From sequence record PP355090.1: DNA of 64,000 nucleotides; one strand, given 5' to 3'. A program made the translations under genes and the position numbers. Each line of letters opens with the position of its first letter. The stretch's first letter is position 1. The notes under the pieces are model-generated. The model saw nothing but the letters and a program-made list of their open reading frames with translations, was not told where the DNA came from and did not search any database. The DNA comes from Escherichia phage 232Ecol030PP. Positions 20,080-41,443 of this stretch are shown in pieces.

Positions 20080-20106
20080 TTTGTGTTCCTCCGTAGTTGA
20101 TAGTTG

Positions 20107-20137
20107 TATAGTACCACAGAGGAACAGTCTTGTAAAC
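20107..20137 (-). promoter_or_regulatory. T4-type early promoter (conserved GGTACTATACAACTATC class)
   Basis: Minus strand GTTTAC (plus 20132-20137), spacer, TACTATACAACTATC, RBS, ATG at 20079. Confidence 0.5.
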
Positions 20138-21513: not shown

Positions 21514-21543
21514 TTTATTCTCCAATCTCACATTTGTTTTGAT

Positions 21544-21579
21544 AGGGTAATAGTATCACACTACTACCCTTCTGTAAAC
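21544..21579 (-). promoter_or_regulatory. T4-type early promoter with embedded palindrome
   Basis: GTTTAC (plus 21574-21579); -10 region GTGATACTATTAC flanked by inverted repeat agggta/taccct. Confidence 0.5.
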
Positions 21580-21582
21580 AAT

Positions 21583-22026: not shown

Positions 22027-22060
22027 TGTATAGTACCATAAAGCTTTATGCTTGTAAACA
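22027..22060 (-). promoter_or_regulatory. T4-type early promoter
   Basis: GTTTAC (plus 22055-22060) and conserved TACTATACAACTATC -10 block. Confidence 0.5.
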
Positions 22061-24645: not shown

Positions 24646-24803
24646 ATTGATTCTCTTCGACTCACCCACAATTACATACTCCTTTGAATAATATCAATAA
24701 TGTTGTTCACCAGATTATAAGTAAACATTGGATAATTATATTGAATCATCACATACACAACAAACAAAACTTTCATTCTCTTCTCCTTGGCAGTTGACAA
24801 GAT

Positions 24804-24833
24804 TACTATATCATAATCTTGCCAACTTGTAAA
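24804..24833 (-). promoter_or_regulatory. T4-type early promoter
   Basis: Minus strand GTTTAC (plus 24828-24833), 18 nt, TATAGT; lies within inverted repeat gttgacaagatt/aatcttgccaac. Confidence 0.45.
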
Positions 24834-24835
24834 CC

Positions 24836-29795: not shown

Positions 29796-29817
29796 GTTGT
29801 TCTCCTCTTAACTGATA

Positions 29818-29852
29818 GAAAAATTATACCACAGTCAAGAGGAAAAGTAAAC
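29818..29852 (-). promoter_or_regulatory. T4-type early promoter (regB)
   Basis: Minus strand GTTTAC (plus 29847-29852), spacer, TATAAT. Confidence 0.55.
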
Positions 29853-31993: not shown

Positions 31994-32410
31994 TTAAATG
32001 TAAATATTTTTGCCGTAATACTTATACCAGTGTGGCTTCATTAAAATTTTTTCATCGAGTCGTTGTTGACTCAACTTAATAGCTGATTTGCATGGATTAT
32101 AATCATTTTTCCATTCTACTGGAATATCGCTGATGTCAGGAACTTCAGTATCTTTTATACTGAACCCGCGTTTTAAGCATTCCGTTATAATGTCCGATTG
32201 ACGCTTTCGCAAAAATTCTAACTTATCGTAAAAGAAAGTAACATGACCAGAACCTAAAATAAATTTAGAAGATATTTTAAAATCTTTAACGCGCTTACCG
32301 TTTGCCACATGCTTACGAACTATACCAAAAACACGCGGCAATTCACGGTATTCTGCGATTAAATGTTGATCAGCAAGTTCAGATACTAAAGTCAAATTAA
32401 TACGAGTCAT
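31994..32410 (-). CDS. denV: endonuclease V (pyrimidine dimer DNA glycosylase) DenV
   Basis: 138 aa [17 protein letters not shown]...; recognised as T4 DenV. Confidence 0.9.
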
Positions 32411-32434
32411 TTTATCCCTCCAAGTAACTGTGAA

Positions 32435-32465
32435 TATACTATCACAATTCTAGGAGAAAGTAAAC
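32435..32465 (-). promoter_or_regulatory. T4-type early promoter (denV)
   Basis: GTTTAC (plus 32460-32465) with -10 TAGTAT on minus strand. Confidence 0.5.
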
Positions 32466-32469
32466 AACT

Positions 32470-33000
<531 letters not shown>

Positions 33001-38459: not shown

Positions 38460-38747
38460 TTACCATTTATAATAATACATATTTACGATGCATTCAAGAC
38501 CCAAAGGATTCTTGAAAATATCATATTCAAGAGGACCTTTTTCTGTTTCAATAAAGAAATCAAAATTTACTGTATTAAATTTACGTTCTTCCTTCACTAA
38601 TTTAACTTGAGAAGATGAACGGTCAATGTAAACCTTTTCAACTTCAAAACATGTTAAAATGCCATAATCATCAATCAAAGCTTTAGCCGCGTCTTGATCA
38701 TATTTATATCCATTTTCAATGGATGATACTTTCGCATAAAGAATCAT
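38460..38747 (-). CDS. hypothetical protein
   Basis: 95-aa ORF, ATG start. Confidence 0.5.
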   Translation of the reverse strand: MILYAKVSSIENGYKYDQDAAKALIDDYGILTCFEVEKVYIDRSSSQVKLVKEERKFNTVNFDFFIETEKGPLEYDIFKNPLGLECIVNMYYYKW

Positions 38748-38749
38748 TA

Positions 38750-39148
38750 TCAGCCTTCATCAACAATAGTGTGAGTATTAGCATTTACGATTTGCCACCA
38801 ATCAAAGCGATTAGAATCCATCGGTTTGTTTTCATTTTCTTTGATAATGTCACGGAGTTCATCTTCAGAGAATGCTTTAGCAATTAAATCGGTATACCCA
38901 CCACGGGGATAATAATTATCACCTGCAAACAAAAGGAAATTTACCTTCCCGGAAGCAACATATGCTTCCTTAGGATACTTGTTTCCTGCGTGGTCAACCA
39001 CTTCAATATAACGGTAAGGAATATCGGTTCTTTCAACCCATTGCCATGCCGCCGCAGGGGAATCGAAAGCATCTACACCTAAACGATTATCTTCATCTTT
39101 AGACGGATTATTTTCGTAATCCGCATATACATAATATTCAACGTTCAT
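38750..39148 (-). CDS. hypothetical protein
   Basis: 132-aa ORF, ATG start. Confidence 0.5.
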   Translation of the reverse strand: MNVEYYVYADYENNPSKDEDNRLGVDAFDSPAAAWQWVERTDIPYRYIEVVDHAGNKYPKEAYVASGKVNFLLFAGDNYYPRGGYTDLIAKAFSEDELRDIIKENENKPMDSNRFDWWQIVNANTHTIVDEG

Positions 39149-39333
39149 TATTCACCTTTAGAAATTTTATCCATAACAATAGCAATTAAACCAATTAAAA
39201 ATGCTACTACAAGTGAAAACACATTTTCTGCTGTAGTCAATAATCCACATATAAATCCAACAAACATTGAAAAACTAAAAGCGGAAGCAGAAATTGCAAT
39301 AGCAACATTTCGAATTAATTCACAACGTTTCAT
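39148..39333 (-). CDS. small membrane protein
   Basis: 61 aa, mostly hydrophobic (two helices). Confidence 0.5.
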   Translation of the reverse strand: MKRCELIRNVAIAISASAFSFSMFVGFICGLLTTAENVFSLVVAFLIGLIAIVMDKISKGE

Positions 39334-39351
39334 TTTATTCTCCTCAGTAGT

Positions 39352-39391
39352 AGATAGGGTAATAGTATCACTACCCTATCTAAAAGTAAAC
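39352..39391 (-). promoter_or_regulatory. T4-type early promoter embedded in 10-bp perfect palindrome
   Basis: GTTTAC (plus 39386-39391); -10 block GTGATACTAT flanked by agatagggta/taccctatct inverted repeat. Confidence 0.5.
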
Positions 39392-39625
39392 TTATTTTTT
39401 ACGAAAAATTGATTTATTTTCTGCTGCCCATTTTTCAATAACTGCAGCAGGACCAGTAACAACAATTTTATCACCGTAATCTTCTGCGGCGAGTTGACCG
39501 AAATTATCTAATGCATCACGAAGAACTCCATGAGGCATTTCACCCATTTTATCTTTCTTGCCAGTGTAAATAAACTCAACTTTTACATCAGCAGTTTCAG
39601 CAATAAATTCTTGGTAAGTTTTCAT
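39392..39625 (-). CDS. ipI: internal protein I (IPI-like) with capsid targeting sequence
   Basis: From ATG at 39625: MKTYQEFIAE... exact T4 CTS decapeptide; an upstream in-frame ATG at 39637 is also possible. Confidence 0.65.
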   Translation of the reverse strand: MKTYQEFIAETADVKVEFIYTGKKDKMGEMPHGVLRDALDNFGQLAAEDYGDKIVVTGPAAVIEKWAAENKSIFRKK

Positions 39626-39651
39626 TTTGATTTCCATTTGGTTTTGTTTTG

Positions 39652-39689
39652 ATAGGGTAATAGTATCACAACTAAAACCCTATGTAAAC
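39652..39689 (-). promoter_or_regulatory. T4-type early promoter with embedded palindrome
   Basis: GTTTAC (plus 39684-39689); GTGATACTATTACCCTATC block; atagggt/accctat inverted repeat. Confidence 0.5.
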
Positions 39690-39701
39690 AACTTTGTGAA
39701 A

Positions 39702-39959
39702 TTATTTTAAATCTTCTAATCGTTTCTTCATCTTAGAACCATTTTTAGCAATTTCTCCTGCATCGGAGCATAATGCTAAAAGTGCTTTAACTTTAGTTTG
39801 GTCTCCTTTAAAAGATGAAGGATCGACCGCAGCAGCAAGTTCTTTAATACGAGAGAAAAGACGCTCAGCTTCAGCTAAAGCCATTCCAAGCTTTACTTCC
39901 ATACCGTGGGAAGATTCAGTGATAGTAGTTTTTGTAGCAAACTCTTTGAAAGTTTTCAT
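39702..39959 (-). CDS. internal-protein-like protein with variant CTS
   Basis: N-terminus MKTFKEFATKTTITE resembles CTS consensus with an I-T-E site; small, lysine/alanine-rich. Confidence 0.5.
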   Translation of the reverse strand: MKTFKEFATKTTITESSHGMEVKLGMALAEAERLFSRIKELAAAVDPSSFKGDQTKVKALLALCSDAGEIAKNGSKMKKRLEDLK

Positions 39960-39981
39960 TTTTATTTTCCTAATTAATTTT

Positions 39982-40020
39982 GATGAGGTAATAGTATCAC
40001 TACCTCATCAGTATGTAAAC
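39982..40020 (-). promoter_or_regulatory. T4-type early promoter embedded in palindrome with compensatory changes
   Basis: GTTTAC (plus 40015-40020); loop atagtatcac identical to 39362-39371 but arms gatgaggta/tacctcatc co-vary. Confidence 0.5.
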
Positions 40021-40032
40021 AACTTTGTGAAA

Positions 40033-40717
<685 letters not shown>

Positions 40718-40718
<1 letters not shown>

Positions 40719-41443
40719 TATAGTACCTTTAGTGTATTTTTAATTTTAGAAAAAAGTTCTTCAAGAGAACCATCGTTTGTAATTACTAAATCGCCATCAC
40801 GAATTGGCAATCCAGCTTCTGTAATATGTGTATCATTGGATTTTTGACCAGGACGAACTACATGAATTACTGTAGCACCCATCGCCCTAGCCGCATCCAT
40901 TTCATGATCTTGACGGGTATCAGGAACGATATAATAATCATAACCTGAGTTAAATTTATCAAGATAATCTAAAGCAAATAATTTTACCCAGTACATGCGG
41001 TCGAAGTTATTAACAATCAAATCCGTACCTAGGGCTTGCATCAGACGACGGACTGACCATTGATCTTCAATATTATTTATAACGTCAATAATCTTGTTAA
41101 ATGCTACGGAATTAACTGATTCTTGTCCTTCGTCATCAAAAACAAACACACCTTTAATTGGGCTTTTACCATTAAGATAGCAAAATGCTTGTTCCATAAT
41201 CGTGATTACTTCTAATTTAGTTAGATTTAAATTAGTCTCACGATCATAGTCAATTCCTTCAAACTCTTTACGAGTTAAGCAAGGATAGTCGGTATTTGCT
41301 GCAAATACTCCCCATGCATAAGCCAATGCATCCTTAATAGGACCAGCAAGTTGGTATTTAACTGCAGAATAATTGCTCATGATAAAATCAGCAGTAGTAT
41401 CTTTTCCACTACGCTTTACACCGCTTAAAAAGATTAGTTTCAT
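40718..41443 (-). CDS. 1: deoxynucleoside monophosphate kinase gp1
   Basis: 241 aa MKLIFLSGVKRSGKDTTADFIMSNYSAVKYQLAGPIKDALAYAWG...; near-identical to T4 gp1 as recalled. Confidence 0.92.

Follow-up and report, generated by a model that had tools for sequence, protein, structure and literature searches.

Early promoters within hairpins at the ipI locus of a T4-type phage: arm pairing, rather than arm sequence, is conserved

Background

Promoter-early stem-loops (PeSLs) were defined in phages phi1 and RB49, where the stem lies most often between the -35 and -10 elements or over the -10, and where the elements sit between an upstream stop codon and the downstream Shine-Dalgarno sequence (SD). 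They cluster in hyperplastic regions and bring about the shuffling of modules and the formation of mini-circles (Arbiol et al. 2010). The class was later extended to the PST/T4 pair, with the promoter pattern TTTACW-N17-TAYWAT, in a paper that also repeats the point about the internal-protein (IP) loci (Comeau et al. 2014). According to both of these papers, PeSL-like sequences at the IP loci of T-even phages go back to Repoila et al. 1994. Neither of these two papers contains a formal covariation test (the string "compensat" does not occur in Arbiol et al. 2010), and a search of the literature found neither later functional work on PeSLs nor a usable transcriptome map of T4 transcription start sites and terminators.

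Here we examine four predicted early promoters, sites A to D, each lying within a hairpin, in 64,000 nucleotides of Escherichia phage 232Ecol030PP (PP355090.1; this whole stretch is called the window). These elements belong to the published PeSL or PeSL-like class found at T-even IP loci and are a rediscovery rather than something new; the first-pass annotation of this DNA had missed both the class and its role as a recombination linker. As far as the T-even elements are portrayed in the two later papers, they occupy the same loci (ipI and ipII/ipIII), use the same T4-type early promoter and, like sites A to D, are AT-rich stem-loops of variable size accompanied by homology blocks 5' and 3' of the IP genes, which make shuffling possible. 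Within those accounts there is no essential difference from the sites described here, and site B and the T4 ipI promoter are one and the same. The phi1/RB49 PeSLs likewise combine an early promoter with a stem-loop between stop codon and SD in hyperplastic regions, with crossovers between the -10 and the SD/ATG. They differ in having near-consensus TTGACA/TATAAT promoters and stems built from G-runs and C-runs, in that one of them reduced downstream expression, and in that mini-circles were detected; Arbiol et al. 2010 accordingly call the T-even IP elements analogs and not homologs. The legend to Fig. 3 of the phage PST paper places the stems "just upstream" of the promoter (Comeau et al. 2014), whereas here they lie around the -10.

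Three other kinds of hairpin invite comparison. In T4 e, soc, 49 and I-TevI the promoter is located in the 5' part of a hairpin, so that only read-through RNA can fold, as is predicted for sites A to D; those promoters, however, are late ones and their hairpins sequester the SD/AUG, whereas sites A to D are predicted to leave the SD free. Rho-independent terminators are also intergenic hairpins on the transcribed strand, but sites A to D lack a U-tract, their stems are AT-rich and their loops reach 10-18 nt. Finally, REP-type intercistronic stabiliser hairpins are stable structures that follow a cistron and could block 3' exonucleases after cleavage; they have no sequence family kinship with sites A to D, and the likeness is at most an analogy.

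Results and discussion

Four promoter-hairpins, three of them at the ipI locus

Several Tequatrovirus genomes, among them those of Yersinia phage PYPS2T and Escherichia phage G9062, match the region with 100% identity, and judged by sequence the source phage is a Tequatrovirus. The genes run in the order 57A, 57B, internal head protein, internal virion protein, trna.4-like gene, trna.3, trna.2 and the tRNA cluster. The interval from 39.3 to 40.0 kb is the ipI locus; T-even phages have two loci for internal proteins, both highly polymorphic, and this is one of them. Three direct repeats of about 71 nt (Table 1), each holding the end of the upstream ORF, an AT-rich UP region, the promoter and the hairpin, provide homology available for cassette recombination. 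The last codons of 57B (..DDLK*) open a homology block that recurs where the first IP gene ends (..EDLK*).

Table 1. Positions in the window of the predicted promoter-hairpins and of the genes and repeats around sites A to C
Feature	Position	Strand	Context or basis
Site A, predicted promoter-hairpin	39352..39391	-	5' of trna.4-like gene
Site A, -35; -10	39391-39386; 39367-39362	-
Site A, arms AGATAGGGTA / TACCCTATCT	39381-39372 / 39361-39352	-
Site B, predicted promoter-hairpin	39981..40020	-	5' of first IP gene
Site B, -35 GTTTAC; block GTGATACTAT; -10 TACTAT	40020-40015; 40000-39991; 39996-39991	-
Site B, arms TGATGAGGTA / TACCTCATCA, equal to (T)GATGAGGTA / TACCTCATC(A)	40010-40001 / 39990-39981	-
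Site C, predicted promoter-hairpin	39644..39691	-	5' of second IP gene
Site C, -35; -10	39689-39684; 39665-39660	-
Site C, arms ATAGGGT / ACCCTAT	39683-39677 / 39658-39652	-
Site C, outer helix TTGTTT / AAACAA	39691-39686 / 39649-39644	-	inner helix UAGU/ACUA
Site D, predicted promoter-hairpin	21534..21581	-	nrdC/mobD hyperplastic region
Site D, -35; -10	21579-21574; 21555-21550	-
Site D, arms AGGGTA / TACCCT	21570-21565 / 21549-21544	-
Site D, outer helix	21581-21576 / 21539-21534	-
Gene 57B, RNA-ligase family	40033..40491	-	annotation and profile match
Internal head protein gene, MKTFKEF... leader	39702..39959	-	behind site B; phrog_3499, E 1e-49
Internal virion protein gene, MKTYQEFIAE leader	39392..39625	-	behind site C; phrog_8111, E 1e-52
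trna.4-like small membrane-protein gene	39148..39333	-	behind site A; phrog_1692
Direct repeats, three copies of ~71 nt	39349-39419, 39647-39717, 39978-40048	.	B and C copies 86% identical

The block GTGATACTAT occurs exactly four times in the 64-kb window, always on the minus strand (21550-59, 39362-71, 39660-69 and 39991-40000), and when one mismatch is allowed there are 16 matches, against 4.9 +/- 2.2 expected; the composite GTTTAC-N-GATACTAT is found four times in the window, against 0.01 expected. Sites A to D are predicted T4-type early promoters (GTTTAC-N18-TACTAT plus TGn, minus strand), and reading the sequence reveals an AT-rich tract upstream of each. All four are intergenic, with the upstream stop codon followed by the element and then by the SD and the next start codon, the SD lying 6-26 nt downstream of the 3' arm. 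Read on the minus strand, the four sites and all the arm coordinates given in the first-pass annotation are correct. In the T4 numbering convention used here (GTTTAC at -36 to -31, the -10 hexamer at -12 to -7) the 3' arm falls at about -6 to +4 and so does cover the transcription start, as had been claimed, the start being predicted and not mapped.

At sites A and B, 10-bp arms lie on either side of the 10-nt block and differ, as the first-pass annotation had noticed, by compensating changes: AG becomes GA in the 5' arm and CT becomes TC in the 3' arm, that is, two base-pair swaps. The 3' arm TACCCTATC is common to sites A, C and D, the 5' arms of C and D being placed in other spacer registers. 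When ungapped stems were compared with those obtained after shuffling the spacer and downstream sequence, A (p=0.000), B (p=0.001) and D (p=0.014) stood out, and by this same simple measure C reached only p=0.24. RNA folding gave similar values at all four sites: -18.5 kcal/mol (z -3.4) for A, -17.4 (z -4.4) for B, -18.1 (z -3.9) for C and -18.7 (z -4.7) for D; the full fold of C and D adds an inner helix and an outer helix in which the -35 region (TTGTTT) pairs with a downstream AAACAA. The Rfam covariance models gave no match at E<=1 in 38500-40800.

Pairing is conserved among unrelated arms

The window contains 16 minus-strand GTTTAC-N18-TAnnnT sites, six or seven of which have significant hairpins around the -10, with arms that are unrelated (for instance AGTTGGCAAGATTA/TAATCTTGTCAACT at 24834, TCCTCTTGACTG/CAGTTAAGAGGA at 29852 and TGTTCCTCTGT/ACGGAGGAACA at 20137). 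We then looked at promoters of other phages with search patterns that left both arms unspecified; the two broader IMG/VR scans are samples, not censuses, and many of the contigs in them are not T4-like. Among the sampled other phages, stems with p<=0.02 were present in 20 of 93 unique GTTTAC-N14-GTGATACTAT sites. With the A/B register held fixed, the Watson-Crick fraction was 0.40, versus 0.31 +/- 0.014 when downstream halves were permuted (0/2000) and 0.27-0.31 in the slid control. The lengths of the paired runs are bimodal, 13 sites having 9-12 contiguous pairs and the remainder no more than 5.

The same picture emerges from an ungapped alignment of 91 promoters, in which the fixed-register helix was 48.9% paired, compared with 42.7 +/- 1.2 in shuffled sets (0/500) and 36-41% when slid, and in which the covariation score was 0.267, compared with 0.190 +/- 0.015 shuffled (0/500) and 0.14-0.18 slid. 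The first-pass annotation had argued that the structure rather than the arm sequence is selected and had proposed to look for covariation in more copies from related phages; these 91 promoters do covary, above both the shuffled and the slid controls, and its argument holds. Among the matches listed, 40 of 282 unique promoter-to-ATG segments had p<=0.01 and 63 of 282 had p<=0.05. A search anchored on the leader peptide of the IP genes, and not on the promoter, adds the arm variants GATGGGATA/TATCCCATC, AGGTCTATAG/CTATAGACCT and GATAGAA/TTCTATC, and a variant in the register of site C, ATGGGGT/ACCTCAT, pairs with a B-type 3' arm and represents a second compensating case in that other register. 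Dozens of unrelated arm sequences in other phages remain complementary in the same register. Pairing, and not arm sequence, is thus what is conserved, in a general manner; it is non-random and under selection.

Cassette exchange between phages

T4 has the order 57B-ipI-trna.4 at its ipI locus and is missing the internal virion protein cassette that follows site C, so that the window has one extra IP cassette. The T4 ipI promoter corresponds to site B base for base, and in the T4 trna.4 promoter a 5' half like that of site C continues into a 3' half like that of site A, a chimera that places the crossover inside the shared GTGATACTATTACCCTATC block. The promoters of T4 ipIII and ipII lie within hairpins of 8 bp and 14 bp, respectively, whose sequences are quite unlike those of sites A to D. 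In other phages A'/B and C'/B promoter chimeras occur, and in general the sites adjoin genes that differ between close relatives, with the exchange points falling within the element. The e-denV junction belongs to the same evidence for exchange within such elements. Some natural chimeras have broken stems (for instance AAATAGGGTA with TACCTCATCA, about -9.7 kcal/mol), and since such chimeras survive, pairing must be dispensable, at least in the short term. The best-documented role of these elements is that of a recombination linker for IP cassettes, a role that the comparison of our sequence with T4 reproduces.

Two geometries relative to the Shine-Dalgarno sequence

Among the stems in the matches listed, the 3' arm begins in one of two intervals, 0-4 nt downstream of the -10 (class I, to which sites A to D belong) or 8-16 nt downstream of it (class II), with no case at 5-7 nt. 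The 5' arm of class II lies right behind the -35 and constitutes an anti-SD, and among the matches listed the SD core is wholly inside the 3' arm in 21 of 27 cases, an architecture that matches the SD-sequestering design of T4 e, soc, 49 and I-TevI. For all stems taken together, coverage of the SD by the 3' arm exceeds uniform placement only marginally (21 versus 15.2 expected, P ~0.05). For the class II SD the predicted accessibility is 0.03 when the RNA reads through from upstream, compared with 0.34 when the upstream sequence is shuffled and 0.61 when the transcript starts at the promoter itself; the window promoters at 29852 and 20137 are of this class, and their SDs are predicted to be masked.

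In class I the situation is different: predicted SD accessibility in read-through RNA is 0.58, and only 0.45 once the upstream sequence is shuffled (p 0.003), and the SD unpaired probability is predicted at 0.58-0.82 (site B included). The insulating effect of class I stems on the SD is small. Masking of the SD by hairpins A to D was considered and rejected, the SD being largely unpaired in the predicted read-through RNA; the suggestion of the first-pass annotation that these hairpins serve translational control does not hold for occlusion of the ribosome-binding site (RBS), which all four are predicted to leave free.

One may tentatively see in the promoter-in-hairpin arrangement a "transcript-origin switch" that T4-type phages use across the genome and that comes in two discrete geometries, a possibility that we put forward as a speculative extension. 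In class I, the promoter sequence within a read-through transcript would fold away and the RBS would stay open, while in class II the gene would be silent on read-through RNA and would be translated only from its own early promoter.

An RNA boundary or a DNA element?

Our preferred reading, held with moderate confidence, is that the hairpin acts as an RNA boundary in read-through transcripts. Each site is a PeSL-like cassette boundary of a T-even phage, built around what should be a strong T4 early promoter of the sigma-70 type (with a UP-like AT tract, GTTTAC, a 17/18-nt spacer, TGn and TACTAT) whose spacer may have evolved to be complementary to the promoter's own initially transcribed region. 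Since the predicted start is inside the 3' arm, RNA begun there should not be able to form the hairpin, which would arise only in RNA that reads through from tandem upstream promoters. In such RNA the promoter sequence would fold into a self-contained hairpin of 10-14 bp and -17 to -19 kcal/mol, acting as a structural boundary that keeps the downstream ribosome site free, and giving the upstream cistron a 3' hairpin after a RegB or RNase E cut downstream. The hairpin would be neither a canonical terminator nor an SD mask. The invariant promoter core and its flanks, about 30-70 bp, would at the same time serve as the homology linker by which internal-protein genes are swapped between phages.

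Strand comparisons initially appeared to speak for RNA as well. A first count of mismatches in the stems among the matches listed gave 14 G.T versus 2 A.C, a first fold comparison gave a sense z of -1.50 versus -0.99 for antisense (p 6e-10), and at sites A to D the sense RNA is 1.4-4.1 kcal/mol more stable than the antisense. The source of this bias is the fixed promoter block with its AGUG/UAUU G.U pairs: with the TGn/-10 block forced to be unpaired, sense and antisense z are -1.11 and -1.09 (p 0.77), and in the subset with significant stems -4.99 and -4.57 (p 0.09). Among the matches listed, counting only arms outside the block and removing duplicate arm pairs, 8 G.T face 4 A.C. We therefore reject an RNA signature in the arms. 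The read-through RNA hairpin, one of the options raised by the first-pass annotation, remains the best reading, while its sense-strand bias vanished once the block was masked. The RNA level is nevertheless favoured over the DNA level on other grounds, since class II makes sense only as RNA, loops of 6-28 nt suit RNA and not cruciforms, the single-mismatch variants of the IP family are all G.T in the sense orientation, and the geometry lets only read-through RNA fold.

The main rival is a DNA-level element, in which the palindrome, as a cruciform or as a hairpin in DNA made single-stranded by replication or recombination, would stimulate cassette shuffling or direct it to these places, and on which a structure-specific nuclease (e.g. 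endonuclease VII) or some other protein might act. This would agree with crossovers mapping to the elements, with the high share of perfect Watson-Crick arm pairs (38 of 53 outside the block, among the matches listed), with the absence of strand asymmetry after masking of the -10 block, and with the folding of single-stranded DNA, in which both strands are equally stable (about -8 kcal/mol each at site A); a DNA-binding recombination protein has also been speculated upon (Arbiol et al. 2010). However, homologous recombination requires the shared core only and no palindrome, a DNA role does not predict that the class II 3' arm should coincide with the SD, and no sequence is common to the arms for a specific protein to recognise. 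Large loops are known to disfavour cruciform extrusion, and with loops of 6-28 nt the duplex cruciform suggested by the first-pass annotation is unlikely. On balance, we consider the DNA-level role unlikely.

Another possibility, and the label that the authors of the PeSL papers chose, is a transcription terminator or attenuator, the hairpin lowering or stopping read-through from upstream. The intergenic position between tandem promoters would fit, and one phi1 PeSL stem-loop cut lacZ expression as strongly as rrnB T1 (Arbiol et al. 2010), but the stem tested there is of the G-rich/C-rich type, unlike the AT-rich stems here. A terminator consensus scan returned no terminator-like site in 38800-40600, only one of 46 significant stems among the matches listed is followed by a U-tract (at least 5 T in the next 8 nt), and the mean number of T after stems is 1.83, compared with a background of 1.81, the tails being A-rich. 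Both the scan and the U-tract statistics being negative, a canonical rho-independent terminator is rejected. Furthermore, the downstream T4 tRNA genes probably rely on promoters that lie upstream, so that transcripts would have to read through, which argues against termination. A terminator or attenuator role seems improbable to us.

One may also consider a non-adaptive origin, in which quasi-palindrome template switching and gene conversion between repeated cassettes generate and perfect inverted repeats without selection for structure. Such template switching is the Ripley-type mutation known from T4 rII, and the A/B difference, an adjacent-dinucleotide swap in both arms, could be copied by a single templated event; the stems are mostly perfect, and broken-stem chimeras survive. 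This scenario, however, leaves unexplained the dozens of unrelated arm pairs that bracket the -10, the two windows to which the starts of the 3' arm are confined, the three registers in which the 5' arms of A, C and D still match the same 3' arm, and the enrichment of stems at p<=0.01 among the matches listed, and we doubt strongly that it accounts for the elements. The dimeric-protein site proposed by the first-pass annotation, for instance an operator for shutting off early promoters, would suit the dyad symmetry centred on the -10 and a shut-off mechanism of T4 early promoters that is incompletely understood, but it is effectively excluded, as the arms differ almost completely between copies, share no half-site, and lie at varying distances from the dyad centre (the loops measure 6-28 nt).

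Conclusions

Elements of this class have been described in print since 1994 and 2010, and the present analysis adds a statistical confirmation of the pairing and a cautionary negative result on RNA strand bias. That the hairpins are neither canonical terminators nor protein operators narrows the possible roles of the stem. If the transcript-origin switch, which we regard as conjectural, were true, dozens of early genes would come under the late-promoter paradigm of e, soc, 49 and I-TevI, and the PeSL stem would gain an RNA-level function apart from termination and recombination. The confirmed selection on the stem matters mainly for how T4-type phages insulate tandem early genes. The internal proteins are injected anti-defence factors, whose swapping alters host range, and it is at the promoter-hairpin cassettes, as joints, that the swap takes place.

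Promoter-hairpins at gene junctions

Gene order and promoter structure were compared with T4 in the region of the lysozyme gene e (see table). In the window denV directly follows e, whereas the T4 order is e-ipIII-ipII-denV, and the denV promoter of the window is a mosaic, in which a 5' arm of the T4 ipII type (CTCCTAGAATTGTGA) is joined to a -10 and 3' arm of the T4 ipIII type. The T4 denV promoter has an SD-masking hairpin with arms CTCCTGTAG/CTACAGGAG. The arrangement in the window looks like the loss of a cassette, with the junction lying within the promoter-hairpin, i.e. an early promoter whose arms pair around the -10. In one IMG/VR phage locus the -10 and 3' arm are partly duplicated in a slipped manner (tacctcatcaaGATACTATTACCTCATC), and the arms are mismatched, the 5' arm being A-type and the 3' arm B-type (the arm types of the ipI-locus hairpins at sites A and B, respectively). 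This suggests slippage or recombination within the shared -10 block.

The tRNA cluster adjoining the ipI locus contains 10 tRNAs in the Yersinia phage PYPS2T and 8 in T4, where it also carries segB, rnaC and rnaD; the segB homing-endonuclease gene is absent from the PYPS2T cluster.

Features compared, with their coordinates
Feature	Location	Strand	Sequence or remark
e-denV region	window 31994-32964 (junction 32411-32470)	minus	
tRNA cluster, PYPS2T	L001 2536-3363		matches window region downstream of trna.2-like gene
tRNA cluster, T4	L344 6909-8531		
Promoter with spacer palindrome	window about 22035-22059	minus	CATAAAGCTTTATG, perfect
Second promoter family	window 36502, 25646, 22059, 20137	minus	TGGTACTATACAACTATC, common sequence
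Promoter with SD-complementary 5' arm	window 29803-29852	minus	TCCTCTTGACTG/CAGTTAAGAGGA
Promoter with SD-complementary 5' arm	window 20084-20137	minus	TGTTCCTCTGT/ACGGAGGAACA
Strongest class I hairpin	window 24792-24834	minus	AGTTGGCAAGATTA/TAATCTTGTCAACT

Early-promoter types and the Shine-Dalgarno sequence

One early promoter has its palindrome confined between -35 and -10, which fits another subclass of the promoter-early stem-loops (PeSLs) of Arbiol et al. (2010). The sequence common to the second promoter family comprises the -10 and the initially transcribed region, and most members have no hairpin around the -10.

In the two promoters with an SD-complementary 5' arm, this arm lies immediately 3' of the -35 and is complementary to the downstream Shine-Dalgarno sequence. 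The predicted accessibility of the latter is 0.00 in read-through RNA but rises to about 0.8 in RNA started at the promoter itself. By this folding prediction, both appear to be early-promoter counterparts of the translational switch of T4 e, soc, 49 and I-TevI.

Class I hairpins, in which the 3' arm begins 0-4 nt after the -10 and is predicted to leave the SD open, are at their strongest in the window around a TATAGT -10, with 13 Watson-Crick pairs and one G.T. Across all 28 class I promoters among 282 sampled sites (a sample from among the matches listed), the SD downstream had a predicted accessibility of 0.58 in read-through RNA, compared with 0.45 when the upstream sequence was shuffled (p 0.003). 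This small predicted rise suggests an insulating, rather than a repressing, role for class I hairpins.
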